Below are positions 8,029 through 55,260 of a stretch of 55,353 bases of DNA, piece after piece. How positions within the stretch are numbered: the stretch's first letter is position 1; the number at the start of each line of letters is the position of its first letter. Source of the DNA: Elusimicrobiota bacterium (GTDB lineage: Bacteria; Elusimicrobiota; Elusimicrobia; UBA1565); assembly GCA_043827405.1 (NCBI GenBank), contig JBDRPD010000052.1, positions 1 through 55,353 on the forward strand, in the 5' to 3' direction. The notes under the pieces were generated by a model. The model worked only from the letters and a program-made list of their open reading frames with translations, did no database searches and had not been told where the DNA came from. A program made the translations under genes and the position numbers.

Positions 8029-10488
8029 CTATACGGAGATGAGGTCTTCTTTGCGGCTGACCATCATCAGCGGCTGGGTCTCGCGGATTTCTTCGAGCGC
8101 CTTCATCAGCTCCGCTTCGGTGTTGAGAATGTGCCCGGTCTGCTTGTCGAGCAGGCCGACCGGCGTCATCTCGTAGCGGTTCTGGTCCTTGAGCTTCGTC
8201 TGATCCGACGAGGTCAGCCGCATCGCCAGGGCGTAGGCGATGTTCCCGATCGGGATGCCCCGCTTGACCCGGTCGATGACGGTCTGTGCGGCGCGGGTAC
8301 CGTTGATGAGACCGGCCCCCTGAAACTCCTTCTTCTCGCCCAGATCCTTGGCGGTCTCCATCAGCATGGCCTTGATCTCGAAGGCGTCCACTTCGGCGCC
8401 GTTCTCCTTGGCGTAGCCGATCACGTCGGCGGCGAAGCCTGCCGTCATGGGCGCGGCCTGCGAGGTCCCGGACATCAGCCGGTAGCCCGGATAGCCCGCG
8501 ACGGTGCAGGCGGTATCGGGGTCGGCGCTGCTGCGGGGCGCGGCGACACCGGGGCCGTAGACGCAGCCCTTGCCCGCAGGTCCGCCTTTCCCGGCGCTCT
8601 TAAGGCCCGCCGGCGCGTCGCGCAGATCGTCCGCGGGCCGCGCCTGCACCATCAAAGTCTGCTTCTCGACGGCCGAGAAGTCGACGCCGCCGGCCACGCC
8701 GACGAGATCCGGTTTGGCGTAAAGCAGCTTGCCGCTGGCATCGCGAATCGGCCCGCGTGAGGAGAAGAAAACAGGTTTGCCGTCCTTGTCCACTCCGCCC
8801 ACGGTGAGCGCGTAGCGGGAGTTGCCGGGAGAGCCCACGCTGCCCTCAAACGGCCCCTCGTTGCCGGCGGCCGCAACGATCAGGATATTGTCCTTAACCA
8901 TCATCTGGTTCGCCAGCGAGCTCAGCGGGTCCTTATTGGCGACCCCCGGGCCGCCAAGGCTCATATTGATCAGGTCGACTTTCTGGCCGTCGCGCATCCA
9001 CTTCATCGCGGCCAGAATTACGCTCTCGTCGGTCTCGCCCTTGGTGCCGAACACCTTGGCGACCTTAAAGCGCGCGTCGGGCGCCATGCCCTTGAACTTC
9101 CCATTGGAAGCCGCGCCGGTGCCGCCGACGATTCCGGCGACATGGGTCCCGTGGCCGACGACGTCGTCCTTGCCCTCTTCGGTGAAATCGATATACTCGC
9201 GGACCCGGCTCTGGCCCTTGTCGTCCATGAAGTCCTGGTGCTTCATGTCGATGCCGGAGTCGATGATGCCGACGTAGGCGCTTTTACCCGTCATGCCTTC
9301 CTTGTGCAGCCCCGCGGAATCCACGATCGTCCCGCTCTCGGCCAGCTTCGGCTTAACAGTATTGGCTTCTTTCTTGCCCAAGAGAGCGGAGGGGATCGGC
9401 AGGAACTGCGCTCCCATAAGCGCGGAGGCCGGCGATTTCAGCGCCGCTTCGGCGCCGGTTTTCGCCGCCTTGTAGACGCGGGCCGGGCGGCTTTCGACGC
9501 CCTGCTTCTGCAGCGCCAGCCCCAGCTTCGCGGCCGACGGAAGGGGCACATCGATCGCCACGATATTTCCGACCACCCGCACGACCTGAGCCCCATGCTG
9601 GTCCAAGAGGGCCTGGTCGAGGCCGGTCTGCCGGTAGACCTCGCCCTTCACGGCCTCGCTGTCGCTGACTTTAAAATGATCCTGGGCCGCGGCATGATCG
9701 GCGGCCACCAAAACACGCACCGTGCCGGCCTCCTTGTTATAGGAATAGCCCTTGCGCTCCGCGGTCTGGGCGAAACCCTTCAGGCCGCCGGCCGCCGAAA
9801 CCGCATTGTCCATATTGTTCCAGTCGAAATCGCCGAGCTCCAGCCGCGAGCCGTCAAAGGCGCCGTTGGGATCGCCCATCGCGGCATCGCTGCGGCGCAC
9901 CGCCATGACTCCGCCCGCGGCGCGGCTTTTGGGAGCATCGCAGGAATAGGCGCCCTGCCCGCATACCACCACTTCCGACTTCTTCTGAATCTCCTTGGCC
10001 GGCGGCTCCAGCAGGCCGCCGTCGCTTGCGGTAAGGATGTCGAGCAAAGCGGTGCGGCCGAGCGCGGTGAGCTCGAGGCGCTGGTCCTGTCCGCGCTTGA
10101 GGAAGGCGTTGTCATCGAGCTGGCGCGGGTCCATCCGCGGCGCCAGGTAGCTCTGCATGGCCAGGGCCATCCCCAGTTCCGGATCGTCGGCCGGCAGCTT
10201 GGAGAGGAACTTGACGACTTTGCCGGCCGTTTTCTCATCCAGGGGCTGCGCGGCGAATTCGCCGGTTCCCGCGTCCTTCTCCGCCAGCACCAGCTTGCCG
10301 TCGGCGGCGAAGCTCAGCCCGAGGACACTGGCGGACTTCTGGATGTTTTCGCGCTGCGGCGCCGAGTAGCGGGCCAACAGGACCGGAGCGACGACCGAGG
10401 CGGCGAACACGAAATCCGACGAGAAAACACAAACGACGAGCAGGGCCGTCAGCTTCTTGCCCCATCCTGTCGACTGTTCTTTGGTCAT
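8029..10488 (-). CDS. Secreted S8 (subtilisin-family) serine protease with a long N-terminal extension
   Basis: Signal peptide; catalytic motifs IIDSG, GHGTHVAG, SGTSQA; NMSLG and AAGNEG. Confidence 0.92.
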   Translation of the reverse strand: MTKEQSTGWGKKLTALLVVCVFSSDFVFAASVVAPVLLARYSAPQRENIQKSASVLGLSFAADGKLVLAEKDAGTGEFAAQPLDEKTAGKVVKFLSKLPADDPELGMALAMQSYLAPRMDPRQLDDNAFLKRGQDQRLELTALGRTALLDILTASDGGLLEPPAKEIQKKSEVVVCGQGAYSCDAPKSRAAGGVMAVRRSDAAMGDPNGAFDGSRLELGDFDWNNMDNAVSAAGGLKGFAQTAERKGYSYNKEAGTVRVLVAADHAAAQDHFKVSDSEAVKGEVYRQTGLDQALLDQHGAQVVRVVGNIVAIDVPLPSAAKLGLALQKQGVESRPARVYKAAKTGAEAALKSPASALMGAQFLPIPSALLGKKEANTVKPKLAESGTIVDSAGLHKEGMTGKSAYVGIIDSGIDMKHQDFMDDKGQSRVREYIDFTEEGKDDVVGHGTHVAGIVGGTGAASNGKFKGMAPDARFKVAKVFGTKGETDESVILAAMKWMRDGQKVDLINMSLGGPGVANKDPLSSLANQMMVKDNILIVAAAGNEGPFEGSVGSPGNSRYALTVGGVDKDGKPVFFSSRGPIRDASGKLLYAKPDLVGVAGGVDFSAVEKQTLMVQARPADDLRDAPAGLKSAGKGGPAGKGCVYGPGVAAPRSSADPDTACTVAGYPGYRLMSGTSQAAPMTAGFAADVIGYAKENGAEVDAFEIKAMLMETAKDLGEKKEFQGAGLINGTRAAQTVIDRVKRGIPIGNIAYALAMRLTSSDQTKLKDQNRYEMTPVGLLDKQTGHILNTEAELMKALEEIRETQPLMMVSRKEDLISV

Positions 10489-46127: not shown

Positions 46128-47756
46128 TCAACACGACGGGCACACACGACGGGCACGCCGCCGCGCCGCAAACGGCAAAAGGTTAATCAGCAGCAGCAGC
46201 AGCGCTCCCAAATGGTAGAACGCTTCGCCGGCAAACGCATGCGGCGTGCGCATATCCATGGTCGCGACGGTCTCGACCAGCGCGCCGCGCACGTCCATAC
46301 CCAAGGTGCGCCGCAGCCGGCCGGTAGGTTCGACCACCGCGCTGATGCCGGTAGTGACGGCGCGCAACAGATACTTCCGGTTCTCGATGGCGCGCAGGCG
46401 GCTGCCGGTCAGATGATGCGTCGGGCCCAGCCCCGGCCCCAGCCAGGCGTCGCTTGACAGCGCGATCAGCAGCTGGGCGCGGTCGCGCGCATACCATGCC
46501 GCATGCCGCGCGACGAACTCCTCGTAGCAGATGTAAACGCCCAGGCGCGCGCCGTTCTCATGGAACAGCAGGGTGCGCGGACCGCGGGAGAGCGGCTCCA
46601 TACCCGGCCGGGAAAAACGGCGCAGAAAGGGGAAATAGGCGCCCAGCGGGACATACTCGCTAAACGGCGTCAAGTAATACTTCCCGACCATCCCCTGATA
46701 GCGCCGCTGCGAATCCGTAAGAAAAGCCGAGTAATACATTCGCCGCGGCCGCGTTTCATCACCCTGCAGAATGGATGTCCCGCTGAGGATGGCGGGCGCG
46801 CTGAAGCTCAAGTCCAGGCGCAGCGCTTCCTCGAGCGGCCGTCCGTCGACGCGCGGCCGGCGCCGCGCGTAGTCGCTGCGCTCGAAGGTCAGCGTCCGCT
46901 CATAGGCCGCCTGCGGCCAGACGACCAGGTCCACCGGCCCGCGCGCCAAAACCGACCGGGTCAGCTCATTGTAGACCGCGAGGTTCGATGCGAACGATTC
47001 GGGCTTTTCCACCTGCTCCCGCGGCAGCGAGCCCTGGATCACGGCGACGCGCAGAGCGAAGCCCTCGCGCATTCGCCGTGCGGCCCAAGCGTCCACCTGG
47101 CGGATGCGGACCAGGCCGTAGCATTCGTTGAGCAGCAGCAGGGCGACGGCGATCTTCAGCCCCGTCCAGCGGTACCGCGCCGCCCGGTCGGAGAAGAGCC
47201 CGACGTACAGGCAGGCATTGGCGCCGTACAGCAGCCAGGCCAGCCCCGCCGTTCCGAACACCTCCAGCAGCTGCAGGAGCGGCAGGTGGTAGAACTGGGT
47301 ATGCGCGGCGGGCAGCGGATTATAAAGGGGGAAGTAGGCCTCCGCGCAGATCATGGCCGGCACGAAAACGCAGGCCGCCGCCGTCCGCCGCGAGCAGCGC
47401 AGGAAATCCGCAAGCGCGCCGGACATCGCCGCCGCCGCGCCGCCCACGCCCGCGAGCAGCAGCCCGCTGTAAAGACAGATCGCCAGATAGCTCATGGCCG
47501 ACTCAATGGGTGAAAAAACGAGATAGGTCTCGATCGTATCCAGGAACCAGCGAAAGCCAATCAGCCAGGAGAGCGTCCCGAAAGCCCAGCTCCAGAGAAA
47601 AGCGCGAACCGGACCAAGCCGCTCCAGCATGCGCAAAAACGGCACCAGCGCGAACCACATGAGAAGGCCCCATGGTCCCGGCGTATGTCCCAGAGAGTAC
47701 AGGACAGCGCCGAGCAGGAGGGCCCCCGCGCGGCGGCGCAGCGCAGCGCTCAGCAC
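46128..47756 (-). CDS. lnt: Apolipoprotein N-acyltransferase-like protein
   Basis: N-terminal TMs; VIQGSLP, VVWPQ, KYYLTPFSEY, ICYE, SSDAW, RAIENRKYLLRAVTTGISA; GTG start at 47756 overlaps the upstream stop. Confidence 0.85.
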   Translation of the reverse strand: MLSAALRRRAGALLLGAVLYSLGHTPGPWGLLMWFALVPFLRMLERLGPVRAFLWSWAFGTLSWLIGFRWFLDTIETYLVFSPIESAMSYLAICLYSGLLLAGVGGAAAAMSGALADFLRCSRRTAAACVFVPAMICAEAYFPLYNPLPAAHTQFYHLPLLQLLEVFGTAGLAWLLYGANACLYVGLFSDRAARYRWTGLKIAVALLLLNECYGLVRIRQVDAWAARRMREGFALRVAVIQGSLPREQVEKPESFASNLAVYNELTRSVLARGPVDLVVWPQAAYERTLTFERSDYARRRPRVDGRPLEEALRLDLSFSAPAILSGTSILQGDETRPRRMYYSAFLTDSQRRYQGMVGKYYLTPFSEYVPLGAYFPFLRRFSRPGMEPLSRGPRTLLFHENGARLGVYICYEEFVARHAAWYARDRAQLLIALSSDAWLGPGLGPTHHLTGSRLRAIENRKYLLRAVTTGISAVVEPTGRLRRTLGMDVRGALVETVATMDMRTPHAFAGEAFYHLGALLLLLINLLPFAARRRARRVCPSC

Positions 47757-49069
47757 GCGCGCTCCGCGGCGCGCGGCCAGGTCTCCCGCAGGAACCGGTC
47801 GACGGCGAGAAACACGCCGTCGGTATTCAGATAGTCCCAGCGTCCGCTGCGGCCGAGCAGGTACAGCCCCTGTTCTTCCAGGCGGCGCTCCAGCCCGGCG
47901 ACGGCCTCCGGCAGGCCGAGCGTCTGGATGGGATAGGTGCAGCGCTCCAGGTGCGCGGCCGCCAGCTCGACATCGCTCTCGGCGGCGAGAATTCCGGTCT
48001 CCGACAAGCCGCGCAGGACCTGCGCCGTCACCGCACCTTCCGTCAGCCCCGGCGCGCCCCGCCGGCGGGTGATCTCGGCGACCACGGTCGGCGGGCGATC
48101 CGGATCGAGCGGCTGCATCATGGTCAGGCGGTAGAAGGCCTCGGGTCCGGCGAAGAACGTCCAGTGGTTGCCGCCGCAGCGGGCGAAGGTCCGCCCGGCC
48201 TTGAGCCCGACGACCGCAAAGTAGGTGTCGTTGCAGAGGAAGCTGCCCGCCTGACCCGACAGGTCCTGGTCCGCCAGCGCGCCCAGAAGCTCGGGGATTG
48301 GAATGGTCGACACAACGATATCCGCCGCCACCTCCCCGCCGGCGCCGCGAACCTTCCACCCGCCGCCGGAACGCCGCAGCTCACGCACCGGCCAGCCGGT
48401 GCGGATATGCGGCCGAATCTCCGCCGCCACCGCTTCCGGCAGCGCTCCCGCGCCGCCGGCTCGGGGATACAGGAAGTTCGCCTGATAGGTCCGCCCTACC
48501 GTGCCGCGGACAAAACCGTTGCGCAGGATCTTCCAGGCCGGCTCCGGCTCGATCTTGCCCCGCACCAGCGCCATGGAAATGCGGTCCAGCGGACAGTCCC
48601 ATATTTTCTCGTTGTATGGCGTCATAAAATGCCGCGCGATCCCGGCGCCCAGGCCGTTGGCGATCCAGTGCTCGAGGTTCCGGTAATTCCGGTCGCCGCA
48701 GAGAGCGGCGCGCAGATAGCCGAGCACGCACTCCATCTTGTGCCCGAACGGCAGATCGGCCAGACCGTTCTCAAACGGATAGTGCAGCTCGCGGATACCG
48801 CCGCCGGGCTCGCGATGGGCGACGCGGACCCGGCGCTGCCGCTCGTGGTATTCGACCGGCAGCTCGCGATAGAAATCCATAGCCGCCGGCTCGCGGCTGT
48901 AAAAGGCGTGCGGCCCGAGGTCCCAGCTGTAGGCGCCGCGGCGCAGGCTGCGGCACAGTCCGCCGACGACGTCGCGGCTCTCCAGCACCACGCAGTCGAC
49001 GCCCTTGGCGCGCAAACGGCGGCAGAGCTGCAGCCCCGTCAGGCCGCCGCCGAGGACCGCCGCCTTCAT
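47750..49069 (-). CDS. FAD-dependent oxidoreductase (protoporphyrinogen oxidase / UDP-galactopyranose mutase-like)
   Basis: VLGGGLTGL, GGLCRS, WDLGPHAF, PYNEKIW, GRSGRWDYLNTD. Confidence 0.8.
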   Translation of the reverse strand: MKAAVLGGGLTGLQLCRRLRAKGVDCVVLESRDVVGGLCRSLRRGAYSWDLGPHAFYSREPAAMDFYRELPVEYHERQRRVRVAHREPGGGIRELHYPFENGLADLPFGHKMECVLGYLRAALCGDRNYRNLEHWIANGLGAGIARHFMTPYNEKIWDCPLDRISMALVRGKIEPEPAWKILRNGFVRGTVGRTYQANFLYPRAGGAGALPEAVAAEIRPHIRTGWPVRELRRSGGGWKVRGAGGEVAADIVVSTIPIPELLGALADQDLSGQAGSFLCNDTYFAVVGLKAGRTFARCGGNHWTFFAGPEAFYRLTMMQPLDPDRPPTVVAEITRRRGAPGLTEGAVTAQVLRGLSETGILAAESDVELAAAHLERCTYPIQTLGLPEAVAGLERRLEEQGLYLLGRSGRWDYLNTDGVFLAVDRFLRETWPRAAERAC

Positions 49070-49788
49070 GCCGCGTCCGCGATCTTCTCGAAGGCGGTCA
49101 GGGTGTTGCGCCGCTCGATGCGGCGCACCCGCGGGTCATGCATGAGATTCTCCTCAACGTAGCGGTCGATGCCCGGCCAGGCCCGGCAGGAGGTATCGTG
49201 CAGGGCCAGTATGCCGCCGCGGTTGAGCAGGGGCAGGCACAGTTCCGCTTCCTTGCGGACCTGATCGTAGTCGTGCATCCCGTCGATGAAAACCATGCGG
49301 AAGCGCTCGGTCAGAGCGGGCAGCGCGGCCTCGGACGGGCTGGCGACGACGACGATGCGGTCGTAGAACCCGTGCTTCTTGGCGTTCTCGATGAACTCGT
49401 AGAACGTTCCGGGAGCGCCGCCGCGCACGCTGCGGTGGATTCGATCCTGCAGTTCGGTTCCGCGCATATCAAAGGTATCGATGCAGAAAACCTTGGTCTC
49501 CGGCGCGCTTCGCGCGCAGGCGCCGGCCAGGATGCAGGTCGACTTCCCCAGCCACGAACCGATCTCCAAAATATGCCCCGCGCCGGGGCGCTGCGCCAGC
49601 TCCCACAAGAACTCATGCTCGCCGTCGTAAATCCAGCCGTCGATCTCGGCGGAGCGGCGAATCCAGGAATTCGCATCGTCCTTCCCGACGGAGGAGACGT
49701 ATTTGTATTCCACTATGGCCGCCGCCGTTAGCGGCAGGCCCAGCAGCCTTTTGGCCGTTTCCCAGAGAAATGATGCCTTGCGGGCCAT
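49066..49788 (-). CDS. Class I SAM-dependent methyltransferase (Methyltransf_24-like)
   Basis: LEIGSWLGKST, VFIDGMHDY, GGILALHD. Confidence 0.85.
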   Translation of the reverse strand: MARKASFLWETAKRLLGLPLTAAAIVEYKYVSSVGKDDANSWIRRSAEIDGWIYDGEHEFLWELAQRPGAGHILEIGSWLGKSTCILAGACARSAPETKVFCIDTFDMRGTELQDRIHRSVRGGAPGTFYEFIENAKKHGFYDRIVVVASPSEAALPALTERFRMVFIDGMHDYDQVRKEAELCLPLLNRGGILALHDTSCRAWPGIDRYVEENLMHDPRVRRIERRNTLTAFEKIADAA

Positions 49789-49894
49789 GAGGTAAAATAG
49801 CAAAAAAGCTCTTGAAATCCTCGCAAAATGGGGGTATATATGTAGTACCCCTCTGGTGGCGGCCGTCTGGTCCCGGCCCCTAGCGGGGCTTACT

Positions 49895-52800
49895 ATGAGG
49901 AAAAGCGCCGCCCTGCTTTTAGCTGTCGCCGTCTCCCTGCAGCCCGTGGGGGGCGGCCTTTCTTATGCCGCCCAAACAGTCGAAGATCCCGCTCCGCTAA
50001 CCGCCGAGTTTCTCGACCGGCTCGACCGGACGATTGCCGACTCCTTCACCCGGGCCAAGCTCGATGCCGTCGATATGGACGCCGCGGCGCTGCGCGCCCG
50101 CATCGCGCAAACAGCGACGCCCATCGCGCGCGCCAACCTGAACCTGCGCATAAGGGAAATCGGGACGCGCCACGGCTATTACCAAGCCCTGCTCTCGGCG
50201 GTCGCGGCACAGGACAAGAGTGCGATCTCGGCCCAAGTCGGTTTGCTCGGCGACGCCTTTCCGGCGCTCAGGGCGGATAAAGAAGGGCTGAACAAGACCT
50301 ATCAGCTGCTGGCGGAAAAAGGGCTGGCGGCGGTCACCGGGGAGAAGACGCCGCAGCATCCCAATGACAACAAGCTCGCCCAGGGCCTGCAGGCGCGCGT
50401 CGGCACGATGAACAGGCTTCCGGCGGCGCTGCACGGCAAAGCGGGCGGCGACAAGTATTACGACGGCAGCATGCAGCGCGGCGCAGCGGCGGCGGACCCG
50501 AAGCTTCCCGGAGGGCCTGACGAAACAAGCAAGACCAATGCCGCCGGGATGAAGAGCTCCGACTTCCAGCCCCGGCAGGCGGCCCTTACCGTCTCGGACG
50601 TCCCCATGAGCTCCCGGTCCACCAAGCTGGAGGCCGACCGCTACGGGACGAACAGCCCCTTCATGAATAAACTGGCGCTCTCCTTCCATACCGCGGCGGC
50701 CAACGTGACTTTGCCCGGCGCGCTCGACCGCTCCCTCGACGCCGTGCGCGCCCAGCACAAGGGAGAGGCCTACCGCCTCACCGACGACCAGATCACCACC
50801 GACCGGGGACAACGGACCGCGGAATTCATCAGCGGGCTCGGCGCGGACACTCCCGACATTAAGAAGCTGCAGGGGATATACCAGGAGGCCGTCAGCAAGA
50901 ACGATCCCGAGCTTATGCGCAAGTTCCTCGACCGCGCCGACAACGCGATCACCCGGCTGGACGCGCCGGCGCTGCGCGGCGAGCGGGACAAACGGACCTC
51001 CTACGCCGCCGCTCTCGAGGAAACCCAGACGGCGATGAACAGCTTTGCCGGGCTCATCGAGAGCCGCCGCCCGGAAATGAAATCGAGCCTTATGAAGCTC
51101 GCGGACAATCCCGGAGCGTTGTCGGAGGGGGAGTGGGCGGGCTTGCAGGACGCCTTCCAGGAGCACCGGGATTCCCCGGAGTTCAAGGCTTTCATGCAGG
51201 CGCGCGCGCAGATGAACGGAGCGCGCGCCGGCCTCGATGAATTCTACGCCGCCAACCCCCTGCTCGCCCGCTACCGCGCCGACCTCGCCTCTTCGGCGCG
51301 CTTTCACTGGCAGGCCATGCTCGGCGGATTGGTAAAGGACGGGACCTGGTTCTCACCGCATGAGCTGCAGGCGCACGATGTGCCGCCGGGAGCGTCGCTG
51401 GTCAAGGGCACCGAGACCGGCCGCGCCGGCCTGTGGACCATGGTGGGCGGCAAAAAGACCAGCTTTAAAAGCTTCGACGGCCGCTACACCGCCGAGCAGT
51501 TCACCGACGCCGAGGGTACGCCGCTCGAACGGCGCATAACGGCGAACAAGCCCGGACAGGCGCCCGACGTAGAGATCATCAACCAGGGAAATAAGAAAGG
51601 GGGATGGAAGCGTCACGTCGGCACTTTGGCCGGCGGCAAGTTCGTCCACGCCTTCACCGAATACAAGGACGGCTCCTTCGACTTGGACACCGAAGCGCTG
51701 TTCGCCGCCGAGCGGGGAGCGGCCAGACAGCAGCCGGCGGCCGATACCGCCGGCGCCATCGTAAAGCTGCTGGGCTGGAAGGACGAGGGCGGCGCCCGCT
51801 CCGGACCGCTCGCCCAGTGGCTGGCGGACGGCTACTCCAAGGGCCAGGGCATCAAAGCGATGCGCCTGCGGGCGCAGAAAGACGGCACCCTGCACGTCAT
51901 TTACGAGCGCTCCGGGGGCGCCCAGGAAATCCGTACCGCCAAGTTCGCCAAAGCCTCCAAGTTTCAGGACCAGGACATGGGCGAAGCGCTGGTGGTGCTC
52001 AAAAAATCCTGGATTCGCGCCGACGGCAGCAAGGATATTCAGCTGCAGCGAACGATGGAATACCTGCCCGACGGCTCACGGCTCTTGTGGAATGAGCAGT
52101 TCGAGAGCACCGAGGCGGGCTGGGTAAAATCGCGCAAGAACCATACCCGCATCTCGCTCAAGCACGTCAAGCGCCGCGCCGACGGGACGCTGGACTGGAA
52201 TAATGCCGGCGTCGAGCGCCGCGCGGAGCTCGACCTCACCGAGGACGTCGACACCACGTCGACTCTCGGGATGGTGAGCGCCGCCCTGCACGACACCCCG
52301 GCTCTCGGCCATGCGCTCAAGGGGCTCGGCTGGGTCGGCGACCGCGGCTACAACGGCGTGGTCGGCGGCTACCAAGGATTGATCGGCGAGATCGCCGACA
52401 GCCCCATCTACCGCGTCCACGGCATGGCCGGCTCCAAGCGCATGGTAATGTCGCGCGATGATGAGCGCTGGGAAAACGTCGCGGCTTCCTTCGGCCGCCG
52501 CGAGAAAGCCGTCATCGACGGCGACGTCCACCGCCTGCGCAGCCGCCACCTAAGCCAGCAGGGCCTGCAGCGCGAGCGCATGCTCGACGATAAGGCCTAC
52601 CAGGACTTCCGCTACCGCGAGATCACCGATAAGGAGCGCGGCCATACGCTGGCCACCGCCGTCGGCGCCGGGACCTACGGCCAGTACTTCGCCGACCTGG
52701 CGGCCGAGGAAACCGGGATCAACCGCGTTCTCTACGAGACCGCCGGCGTCGGCATGACGACGCTCGAGAGCATACCGCAGACCTTGCCGGTCCTGCTGGC

Positions 52801-54775
52801 GCTCGGCCCGCTGGGCAAGGCGGCGGGGACCGGCAGCTGGGCGGTGCGCGGCGTGTCGCTGGCCCGCGTCGGTCACGCCGTCGTTACCCCTTACGTCATG
52901 ACCTCCTGGGGCGTCAATATCCCGCTGGGCGTCAACGACTTCGTCGAGGGCATCCAGGAAGGCGACCCGCACAAGACCGTGCGCGGCGGCGGCCAGGCCC
53001 TGACCGACGCCTTGTTCCTGGCGGTCGCGGCCAAGGACTTCGCCAAGACCCTAAAATCGCAGCGCACCCAGGCGCAGGTCAAAAATTTCGACAAAGCGCT
53101 GACCGAACCCCAAAGCGCGCCCAAGATCAAGCCCAAGCGGGCGCACAACCCCAAGTCCGCGGCGCAGGGGAAAAGCAAAACCGTCGCCCATCCGGTGAAG
53201 GAGACGGTAAAGGCAAGAGGCGAGTCGAAGGCCGGCCGCGAGGTCCAGGCCGACGCCCTGATGGAGCAGCAGGTGGCCAAGCGCGGCGAGTACCTGGAGA
53301 GCCGCAAGACCGACGCTAAAGCCGGCAGGGAAACGGTCGAGCAGCGCCAGACGCGGGCGCTGGAAGAGCGCGCGCTGGCGAAGAAGGCCTACAGCGAAGC
53401 GGTCGAAATCGGCAAGGGCGCCAAAGAAAGCCCGGTCAGCGAAGCCGGCGTCGATGCCGCCATCGCCGAAGGGACCCTGGCCGAAAACAGCAATCTCAAC
53501 GTAGCGCAGCAGGGCTCGCAGACCTGCGCGCTGCACGCCTGGACCAACCATCTCAACTCGGCCGGCGTGAAGATCACGCTCGGCGAGGTGTTTAAAGTAG
53601 TCGAGCAGCGCCTCGGCCCGGAGCTGCTGCAGAAGGCCAAGACCCAGGGGCTGTCGCAGGCCGAGACCATGCTCGTCTACAAGGCCGTGGCGTTGGAGAA
53701 AGGCATCAGCCTCGAGCGCGTCCCCGCCGGCAAGGTGTTCTCCAAGATCGCCCAGGAAGGCAACAGTGCCTCGATGACCATGCGCACCGGCGAGGGGCAT
53801 CACCAGGTCGTCGTCGAAGGCGTCGTCCAGGGCAAAAACGGCGGCAAGTACGTCTCCTACATCGACTCGCAGACCGGCGGCCGCACCTTCATGCCGGTCG
53901 AGCTGTTCGCCAAGCTGGCCCGCTCCGACGGCCTGGTCGCCGGCAAGAAGGCTGCGCCGCAGACCTATGCCGAGTGGCGCTCCGAGTTCAAGGCCTTCAA
54001 GAAGGGGAAGATCAAGTTCGCCGCCGAGAAGGACGCGATGAAGCTGGAGGAGCTCGTCGACGGGGGGGAGACGGCGCGCGTCGGCCAGGGCGAGGCCCCG
54101 CCGCCGATGAAGGTGATGGAAGCGCTCGATAAGCTGCTGGACGATCCCGCCAATATCGCCAAGATCAAGGACAACCCGAACGCCTACCGCAATATTCTCG
54201 GCAAGATGATGGGCGGCAAGAAGCAGGCGTCGAAGCCGCTCAACGAAGCGCAGATCGTAGAGGCGCAGCGGGCCTATAAGCAGCAGCTTATGCCGGAAGC
54301 GAAGAAGGTATTGGAACGCTACAACCTCACCGAGGCCGATGTCGTCTCGCACGGCACCAGCCTGCAGGGCCTGATGGGAATGATCTTCGAGGGCGGCATC
54401 CGGGCCTCCGACTCCTTCGGCGACGGAGCCAAGCATTGGGCGGCAAAGGGCACCGGCGGCGCGACCTATATCGCGGCGCCGGCCGGACGCGGCGAGCCGG
54501 GCGTCGTCGTCATCATTGAGAACAAGGGCAACCGTCTCGGCCATACGATCGACTATACGGCGAAGTCGCCCCAGGTCATGAGCGACTTCCTGGCCGTCAT
54601 TATCACCGACGGCGCCAAGACCGTGGTTCTCGACAAGGCGCAGCTTATGACCTTGGGCTCCTCGGCCAAGGCCTGGAAGACCAAGGTCAGCGACTACAAC
54701 CAGCCCGGCTGGAAGATGAGCGACTTCTCCGCCTGGGAGAAGTACCAGAAGATCTTCGAGTCGACCAAGCGCTGA
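49895..54775 (+). CDS. Giant exported multidomain protein, polymorphic-toxin-like: C39/papain-like protease domain and C-terminal ART-like domain
   Basis: Signal peptide from ATG 49895; hydrophobic segment near 52770-53030; QQGSQTCALHA...HHQVVV...YIDS protease motifs at about 53500-53900; VSHGTS...MIFEGGIRAS from about 54344. The ORF is solid; the domain calls are by eye. Confidence 0.7.
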   Translation: MRKSAALLLAVAVSLQPVGGGLSYAAQTVEDPAPLTAEFLDRLDRTIADSFTRAKLDAVDMDAAALRARIAQTATPIARANLNLRIREIGTRHGYYQALLSAVAAQDKSAISAQVGLLGDAFPALRADKEGLNKTYQLLAEKGLAAVTGEKTPQHPNDNKLAQGLQARVGTMNRLPAALHGKAGGDKYYDGSMQRGAAAADPKLPGGPDETSKTNAAGMKSSDFQPRQAALTVSDVPMSSRSTKLEADRYGTNSPFMNKLALSFHTAAANVTLPGALDRSLDAVRAQHKGEAYRLTDDQITTDRGQRTAEFISGLGADTPDIKKLQGIYQEAVSKNDPELMRKFLDRADNAITRLDAPALRGERDKRTSYAAALEETQTAMNSFAGLIESRRPEMKSSLMKLADNPGALSEGEWAGLQDAFQEHRDSPEFKAFMQARAQMNGARAGLDEFYAANPLLARYRADLASSARFHWQAMLGGLVKDGTWFSPHELQAHDVPPGASLVKGTETGRAGLWTMVGGKKTSFKSFDGRYTAEQFTDAEGTPLERRITANKPGQAPDVEIINQGNKKGGWKRHVGTLAGGKFVHAFTEYKDGSFDLDTEALFAAERGAARQQPAADTAGAIVKLLGWKDEGGARSGPLAQWLADGYSKGQGIKAMRLRAQKDGTLHVIYERSGGAQEIRTAKFAKASKFQDQDMGEALVVLKKSWIRADGSKDIQLQRTMEYLPDGSRLLWNEQFESTEAGWVKSRKNHTRISLKHVKRRADGTLDWNNAGVERRAELDLTEDVDTTSTLGMVSAALHDTPALGHALKGLGWVGDRGYNGVVGGYQGLIGEIADSPIYRVHGMAGSKRMVMSRDDERWENVAASFGRREKAVIDGDVHRLRSRHLSQQGLQRERMLDDKAYQDFRYREITDKERGHTLATAVGAGTYGQYFADLAAEETGINRVLYETAGVGMTTLESIPQTLPVLLALGPLGKAAGTGSWAVRGVSLARVGHAVVTPYVMTSWGVNIPLGVNDFVEGIQEGDPHKTVRGGGQALTDALFLAVAAKDFAKTLKSQRTQAQVKNFDKALTEPQSAPKIKPKRAHNPKSAAQGKSKTVAHPVKETVKARGESKAGREVQADALMEQQVAKRGEYLESRKTDAKAGRETVEQRQTRALEERALAKKAYSEAVEIGKGAKESPVSEAGVDAAIAEGTLAENSNLNVAQQGSQTCALHAWTNHLNSAGVKITLGEVFKVVEQRLGPELLQKAKTQGLSQAETMLVYKAVALEKGISLERVPAGKVFSKIAQEGNSASMTMRTGEGHHQVVVEGVVQGKNGGKYVSYIDSQTGGRTFMPVELFAKLARSDGLVAGKKAAPQTYAEWRSEFKAFKKGKIKFAAEKDAMKLEELVDGGETARVGQGEAPPPMKVMEALDKLLDDPANIAKIKDNPNAYRNILGKMMGGKKQASKPLNEAQIVEAQRAYKQQLMPEAKKVLERYNLTEADVVSHGTSLQGLMGMIFEGGIRASDSFGDGAKHWAAKGTGGATYIAAPAGRGEPGVVVIIENKGNRLGHTIDYTAKSPQVMSDFLAVIITDGAKTVVLDKAQLMTLGSSAKAWKTKVSDYNQPGWKMSDFSAWEKYQKIFESTKR

Positions 54776-54780
54776 CCTCC

Positions 54781-55260
54781 GTGGACACCCCCCCTGAACT
54801 CGCCCGTGCCCAGAAGCTCGCGGAAGACGGAAGCTTCGACGACAGCATCGCGATCTGCGACGCCGTCCTCGCCGGCGAGCCCGACTCGGCGGCCGCCCTC
54901 AGCCTCAAGGGCTGGTGCCTGGACCAGCAGGGCAAGAGAGAAGAAGCGCTGCGCGCCTTCCAGGAAGCCGTAAAGCACCTGCCGGTCTATGCGCCGCTGC
55001 GCAAACAGCTGGGACAGGCCTATGCCGACTTCGGCCGCGCCGAAGAAGCGGTGGCGGAGTTTAGTGAGGCCCTGCGTCTCGACCCAAAGGATGCCGATGC
55101 GCTGATCAAACGCGGCGCCTGCCGCTTGGCCACCACCGAACTGAAGGAAGGTCTACAGGATATCAAGGACGCGGTCGCCATGGACGGCTCGCTGCACGAG
55201 CGCGGCGAAGAGATCTGCCGCGCCTTCGCCGCAGCGCATAAGCTCGATCTCGGGCTTTAG
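54781..55260 (+). CDS. Small cytoplasmic TPR protein
   Basis: Three to four TPR motifs (ALSLKGWCLDQQGKREEAL, LGQAYADFGRAEEAVAEFSEALRLDP); starts 5 bp after the giant gene. Confidence 0.8.
   Translation: MDTPPELARAQKLAEDGSFDDSIAICDAVLAGEPDSAAALSLKGWCLDQQGKREEALRAFQEAVKHLPVYAPLRKQLGQAYADFGRAEEAVAEFSEALRLDPKDADALIKRGACRLATTELKEGLQDIKDAVAMDGSLHERGEEICRAFAAAHKLDLGL

Follow-up and report, generated by a model that had tools for sequence, protein, structure and literature searches.

A giant exported protein of Elusimicrobiota with an internal papain-fold protease, an ART-like tip and an adjacent TPR gene: a candidate polymorphic toxin system

To our knowledge, nearly everything known of Elusimicrobiota beyond the gut lineages comes from genomes, which encode many giant exported proteins. 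One such protein is encoded near the end of a 55,353-nucleotide stretch of Elusimicrobiota DNA (contig JBDRPD010000052.1), the whole of which was analysed and is called the window here. What does this giant do, and why is it followed so closely by a small TPR gene? A preliminary description, made from the sequence alone, had proposed a toxin whose protease releases an ADP-ribosyltransferase (ART)-like effector. The locus presents a testable handle on the question: a carrier without known fold, a small pair of terminal domain ("tip") and TPR protein, and a natural tip swap between orthologues. The family is moreover a pool of new candidate antibacterial domains.

The giant gene occupies positions 49895-54775 of the forward strand and codes for 1626 amino acids from its ATG; a start at the GTG in frame at 49856 would lengthen the protein to 1639. 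The reading frame, the catalytic-looking residues and the VSHGTS motif described previously were all recovered when the sequence was read again. Codon 53525 is Cys1211, the sole cysteine of the 1626 residues, with Gln1206 five residues upstream; codons 53801 and 53864 are His1303 and Asp1324, and VSHGTS contains His1486. The Sec-type signal was judged probable by eye, from its basic start, hydrophobic residues 4-26 (Kyte-Doolittle peak 1.63) and A-x-A end. No Pfam or NCBIfam family matched the giant over cut-off, and no RHS/YD, haemagglutinin or RTX family did at E<=1, in agreement with the reported lack of such repeats. Two descriptions needed correction. The hydrophobic Gly/Ala stretch is present but just moderate, as no 19-residue window exceeds 1.3 across residues 27-1560. 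The terminal domain is present too, but measures about 225 residues (1400-1626) and not about 150 if the helical lead-in that accompanies it is counted, as it should be. The signal-less TPR gene does begin 5 bp past the stop codon of the giant; it runs from 54781 to 55260, starts with GTG and codes for 159 amino acids (TPR_19, E 1.4e-15). The parts are, in order:

49895..49972, + strand: probable Sec signal peptide, residues 1-26 (sequence and hydropathy, by eye)
49973..51574, + strand: N-terminal region, residues 27-560, no family (no Pfam match over cut-off), shared by few relatives (comparison with L017 and P0001)
51575..52249, + strand: scaffold, beta-rich domain, residues ~561-785 (AF2 model, genome profile; no PDB match)
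52250..53101, + strand: scaffold, Gly/Ala-rich helical module before the cargo, residues ~786-1069 (model helices; hhalign to sister subfamily)
53102..53446, + strand: charged Lys/Ala/Pro linker, whose last ~30 residues travel with the protease (sequence, homologue alignments)
53447..53977, + strand: papain/C39-fold cysteine protease with Gln1206, Cys1211, His1303 and Asp1324
54062..54067, + strand: Gly-Gly, residues 1390-1391, in a low-confidence linker (pLDDT <50), kept in P0001; a speculative self-cleavage site
54092..54772, + strand: terminal tip, residues 1400-1626, helical lead-in and ART-like core with His1486, Trp1515, Tyr1525 and Asp1553 (18-member alignment, motif counts, strand order, Atlas leads)
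54781..55260, + strand: TPR protein without signal, member of a distinct subfamily and candidate for immunity to the tip; the unit ends with this gene

The same parts follow each other in the same order in P0001, an independent protein with 55% identity over 1393 columns, and the arrangement is therefore not an assembly artefact. The contig of P0001 itself was sought in 41 stretches, none of which was confirmed. The window is an entire contig, the end of which overlaps the next contig by 141 bp, and because the first gene there is convergent, the unit consists of two genes with the TPR gene last. In a scan for promoters and terminators, the gene ends scored no higher than shuffles. Among the matches listed for RNA run X7 there is one exact contig of 262 bp at depth 2, which is not proof of expression. 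Divergent genes upstream (46128-49803, - strand) code for a methyltransferase, a flavin oxidoreductase and an apolipoprotein N-acyltransferase, with no link to the giant seen. Farther away, at 8029-10488 (- strand), an 819-codon reading frame with signal-like start possibly represents another lineage-specific exported protein.

The N-terminal scaffold, previously called unrecognised, is indeed a carrier with neither a Pfam family nor a fold match among solved PDB structures. Its AF2 model (pLDDT 81, pTM 0.76) consists of a beta-rich domain followed by long Gly/Ala-rich helices. The region preceding it is 32% identical to L017, the closest scaffold relative, over 297 amino acids, and P0001 aligns from residue 246. 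Residues ~560-1100 match large reading frames in relatives, and the scaffold profile was found in 68 of 301 genomes of the class; its own family contributes 15 of 16 genomes and another family 46 of 78. The helical module recurs in a sister subfamily (hhalign probability 96.9, E 1.7e-10, 230 columns), and it is the one part, the beta part not included, for which homology between the two was shown. We infer that the module is a candidate for membrane insertion or translocation. L017 ends right after the helices, carries no cargo and is followed by a convergent gene. In eight close relatives, one of them the genome's own paralogue of the scaffold (G000:C56; L016:5539-11079, - strand; 1846 amino acids), no enzyme is recognised at the C-terminus, which consists of a linker rich in Gly and a hydrophobic anchor and also holds a conserved HLxxGxLP-like motif; this anchored form may be the ancestral one. 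Eight of nine named scaffold relatives come from Elusimicrobiota MAGs and one is labelled only "bacterium"; the database names of tip homologues point the same way. At L026/L027 (G001:C56) and L215-L218 (G001:C14, C52), giants with the scaffold, ~800-5000 amino acids long, stand in tandem arrays and have differing, in several cases kinase-like, ends.

The protease-like region has a papain fold according to its structure model, and the intact triad and papain/C39 fold suggested before were borne out by model and Foldseek. The top matches include two antibacterial toxins, 8ssm and 9l5u (E 7.5e-4 and 9.4e-5, respectively; 14-18% identity), and Atlas look-alikes belong to C39-type families (0.94). 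HMMs of Pfam Peptidase_C39, C39_2 and C70 gave no match at E<=0.05. Q1206, C1211, H1303 and D1324 are invariant in 13 sequences, and the C-H-D triad is kept in 25 of 27 domains. The proposed dedicated releasing role is weakened: the protease sits immediately before the tip in the giant and in P0001, but no domain comes after it in 7 of 27 cases, and the tip-bearing giants L139, L140 and L141 lack it. In the other 20 it is followed by further, often toxin-like, sequence, and it is doubled in P0003 and P0012. By its distribution in sequences the protease behaves as mobile cargo, so that a dedicated releasing role is unproven. Giants carrying it also contain GGDEF, PP2C, FHA, MFS and glycosyltransferase domains. 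One protease lies inside an open frame of 13,760 amino acids (L135, G053:C15), which holds glycosyltransferase domains too in the part fetched.

The tip family was detected in 16 of 101 genomes of the order and in none of the other orders sampled. ADP-ribosyltransferases of the H-Y-E/D type carry a tyrosine in strand 2. Alignment of 18 tips revealed an invariant core of Gly, Gly, Trp, Tyr, Pro, Asp and Gly. The strand-1 motif HG(S/T) is present in the window as His1486-Gly-Thr; its first residue is His in 11 tips, Asn in five, Ser in one and Thr in one, and the next Gly is kept in all 18. In place of the strand-2 tyrosine there is an invariant tryptophan (Trp1515, 18/18), with a second, invariant Tyr 11 residues farther in 15 of 18. 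Six residues before the invariant Pro, 14 tips have an acid, Asp1553 in the window, and four lack it; the MAFFT alignment puts His1550 instead of Asp1553 into this column. The tip is modelled with confidence and its predicted strand order is compatible with an ART; Atlas leads to HYD1, exotoxin A (ExoA) and PARP clusters are weak (0.84-0.87). Because tip and protease were folded as one model and protease matches filled all four fold-search lists, missing ART rows in these lists are uninformative. Full and core tip profiles found no significant match in PDB, and none of the 18 members matched Tox-ART-HYD1 (PF15633) or KptA (PF01885) in Pfam. Direct comparison with KptA by hhalign gave a probability of 0.7, and 53 of 500 shuffles scored as high. 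The best tblastn hit of the tip in phages had an E of 4. The PF15633 profile found nothing in 151 genomes, and its controls were also at zero. From the motifs, the predicted strand order and the weak Atlas leads we consider an ART fold likely. The tip is also found at the end of a set of smaller exported proteins (L036-L043, L072-L075, L081), whose N-terminus is of low complexity and whose genes are followed by unrelated housekeeping genes; in P0021 an HD domain follows the tip.

The TPR protein belongs to a distinct subfamily with seven copies in 6 of the 101 genomes. Its profile was built from three copies, and 37 candidates per genome were scored. Copies scored 163-262 bits, the four new ones 163-177, and the next match reached 85. 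Four of the seven stand directly behind a tip (the window, G131, G203 and G216), and their tips do not form one clade (p-AU 4e-6). Since L139 and L140 combine tip and TPR gene in the absence of the protease, the link is to the tip. Two further copies stand behind L188 (G196), a tip-swapped orthologue, and the remaining one is separated by 2.4 kb from another giant upstream, the tip-bearing giant of that genome being on a different contig. The linkage expected in relatives is seen for four of seven TPR copies and, from the side of the tip, in a minority of places: 18 of 20 tip places have 3' context, and 14 of these 18 are without a subfamily TPR gene behind. Among the 37 candidates scored per genome, none was found in 11 of the 16 tip genomes. 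TPR-less tips lie mostly on frames of 340-970 amino acids, some cut by contig ends, and all four genomes with a tip on a frame of at least 1300 amino acids contain a TPR copy. On one reading, only the giant carrier delivers the tip into kin. The gene linkage makes the TPR protein a candidate for immunity to the tip. At L125:720-2115 (+ strand), a gene pair resembling a type IV (AbiE-like) toxin-antitoxin module was noticed by eye; it is flanked by a giant with the protease and by a TPR gene of the subfamily.

Exchange of C-termini, expected for a polymorphic toxin, is evident in the sister subfamily. L140 (G131) and L188 (G196) are syntenic orthologues from one genus, with the same flanking genes and 70% identity over 1584 columns. 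Identity is 54-94% up to residue ~1595 and drops to 24-30% beyond it. L140 ends in a window-type tip followed by a TPR gene. L188 ends in a kinase-like domain, then come a 206-codon gene of no family overlapping the stop codon and two TPR copies, the nearer of which is sister to the TPR gene of L140 (support 92/93). This pair shows, at the level of sequence, a variable C-terminus on a conserved carrier. The anticipated swapped ends and variable downstream genes were thus found in the sister subfamily but not in P0001, the closest full-length homologue, which has the window cassettes and in which the tip is one of the best conserved regions (64-76%); variation is therefore visible at the family level only. 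In a run from another study, contigs among the matches listed differ from scaffold and protease at 12 of 986 and 4 of 882 bases. A contig over the tip core differs at 48 of 321 bases at similar depth, the protease contig stops matching at 54096, and no contig among the matches listed bridges the tip junction. This hints at a divergent tip allele in that run.

A further cassette connects the family with known toxins. L139 carries an L140-type scaffold, an internal CdiA_C domain (E 6e-13) and the tip, followed by two TPR genes and SitI3 (E 1.3e-15); CdiA_C is also internal in L212-L214. According to the available part of PMC5562445, SitI3 provides immunity to the CdiA-like tRNase SitA3. Among 101 genomes, SitI3 is present in 11 of 12 with CdiA_C and in 2 of 89 without it, counts that are not independent because the genomes are kin. 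In the 11, it is directly adjacent in five, the third gene downstream in one and unlinked in five. The five adjacent pairs (L251-L255) comprise exported proteins of 525-2449 amino acids ending in CdiA_C with SitI3 directly next; their carriers match neither scaffold profile, and they are further polymorphic toxin carriers in the order. A ~400-residue cassette with a DHH-like motif (by eye, no Pfam match) was seen in L140, L188, L212-L214, L222 and L223, internally in two and terminally in five.

On balance we favour the reading that the window contains a polymorphic toxin system, a two-gene toxin-immunity unit in which cassettes are stacked and the TPR protein confers immunity. Against this reading stand the unchanged tip of P0001, the many tip loci and genomes in which no subfamily TPR gene was found, the membrane anchor at the end of most close scaffold relatives, the varying His of the tip and the non-toxin domains of protease-bearing giants; the tip swap and the pairing with SitI3, moreover, come from the sister subfamily. 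Its main rival, which we find rather unlikely, is a surface-displayed or injected multi-enzyme effector akin to the Omnitrophota giants, whose cassettes digest or reprogram prey or host, whose protease matures a polyprotein and whose TPR partner serves giants as a chaperone in folding or export and not as immunity protein. Such a role would suit a genome with 60 open frames of at least 1200 amino acids and three secretins over cut-off, as well as the signalling and sugar enzymes among the cargo of protease-bearing giants. Six of the seven TPR copies have a giant gene upstream (before the seventh there is a tip truncated at a contig end), and the TPR protein bears a weak likeness, far below cut-off, to SycD/LcrH chaperones (E 1.6e-7). 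C39 domains of Omnitrophota giants have also been proposed, in the part available of 10.1101/2023.11.21.568195, to cut a polyprotein. However, the TPR subfamily occurs in 6 of 101 genomes and the scaffold in most genomes of two families, so the TPR protein is not a general chaperone. The new gene and orphan TPR genes at the swapped locus and the pairing of CdiA_C with SitI3 are, moreover, marks of conflict among kin.

That the protease is a dedicated auto-processing domain with release of the ART tip as its sole job seems improbable to us. Its position just before the tip, the flexible linker and the Gly-Gly kept in P0001 (Gly-Gly is common in the giant) agree with this role, as do the sequences, often toxin-like, after most copies and the papain-like releasing peptidases of polymorphic toxins (PMC3482391, part available). 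Tips without protease in L139, L140 and L141 and terminal or doubled proteases elsewhere nevertheless speak against it, and the nearest folds include toxins that cut topoisomerases (PMC12136450; 10.64898/2026.05.07.723447; both as far as available). We give very little credence to a third alternative, in which the giant is an adhesin that has accreted domains, among them a tip that binds nucleotides or proteins without being an enzyme and has the TPR protein as an ordinary partner. The varying first histidine, the acid missing in four tips and the many small secreted tip proteins without partner gene would fit it, but the invariant Gly, Trp, Tyr, Pro and Asp stand in ART-like order and the same slot is used by kinase-like and CdiA_C cassettes.

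The architecture, the exchange of cassettes and the gene linkage are shown by sequence, and the protease fold is shown by its model. Working as the polymorphic toxin system we favour, the giant would be exported by Sec, judging from its signal, and presumably displayed through one of the bacterium's own secretin systems. The scaffold would present the C-terminal part, and its Gly/Ala-rich helices might help to cross the target membrane. Behind the scaffold would sit interchangeable enzyme cassettes, here the protease and a putatively NAD-using, ART-like tip. The protease would be one of the cargo enzymes and might, like StbD, additionally release itself and the tip by cleavage. The cytoplasmic TPR protein, as its linkage suggests, would neutralise tips delivered by kin. 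Tips would be replaced by recombination, the new immunity gene coming with the new tip and the old ones staying behind as orphans, the pattern of the sister subfamily. As a tentative extension, which we put forward as a conjecture, the family might represent an undescribed contact delivery, in which a Sec-exported scaffold of new fold uses its helical module to carry toxin stacks into neighbours, with a new H-W-E/D clade of ARTs and dedicated TPR immunity needed only on the giant carrier. Should the favoured reading hold, the polymorphic toxin catalogue would gain a scaffold for delivery, a clade of ARTs and a family of immunity proteins. In the literature covered, with supplementary tables and most subscription journals outside its scope, no description of the giant family was found, and carrier, tip family and TPR partner had no match in the libraries searched.

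How does this unit compare with known systems? Features of CDI, RHS and T6SS effectors were looked for, and no haemagglutinin or RHS Pfam match was found in the giant. The T6SS sheath protein VipB was not detected in the 98% complete genome by a search whose control responded; the TpsB partner ShlB appeared only below cut-off, with a silent control, and no CdiB was found. StbD/CdiA-CT of Citrobacter rodentium (8ssm) and Cpe1 of Escherichia coli (9l5u) have the C39-like fold in common with the window protease. As far as their sources were available, StbD both cleaves itself and intoxicates, and 9l5u is titled as a papain-like toxin/immunity pair. In contrast to the window, where the peptidase is internal and precedes a second cassette, it is the terminal toxin of CDI or T6SS carriers in both. 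The tip resembles Tox-ART-HYD1, H-Y-E ADP-ribosyltransferases and KptA in its HG(T/S) strand, the helix with following GI, the aromatic second strand, the Tyr 11 residues later in 15 of 18 tips and the acid before the last strand in 14 of 18. It differs from them in that a Trp always replaces the second-strand Tyr, the His varies, no Pfam family matches and extra helices lie at both ends; an ART fold is probable.

SitA3/SitI3 of Myxococcus, in the part of PMC5562445 available, represent the same tRNase-type cassette and immunity family as found in this order, once on a tip-bearing giant. SitA proteins are, however, lipoproteins passed on by outer membrane exchange, whereas the window giant has neither a lipobox Cys nor the tRNase cassette. 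The Omnitrophota giants, as described in the available part of 10.1101/2023.11.21.568195, which names Elusimicrobiota as rich in very large genes, are likewise large multi-enzyme proteins that are exported, contain C39 domains and lack annotation in their N-termini. They differ in their length of 10,000 to >30,000 amino acids and many membrane segments, and that part reports no immunity genes or tip swaps. The closest parallel in logic is offered by the Sec-exported (T2SS-class) polymorphic toxins of PMC3482391, again as far as available: signal peptide, carrier, internal papain-like peptidase, C-terminal toxin, and adjacent and leftover immunity genes are common to both. Contrary to them, the window family uses a carrier without Pfam or PDB match, stacks several cassettes on one protein and has a TPR protein as candidate immunity, and immunity genes can be unlinked in this order, as in the five SitI3 cases of 11. 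The logic is that of polymorphic toxins, with a carrier, a family of tips and a TPR partner that appear to be new.
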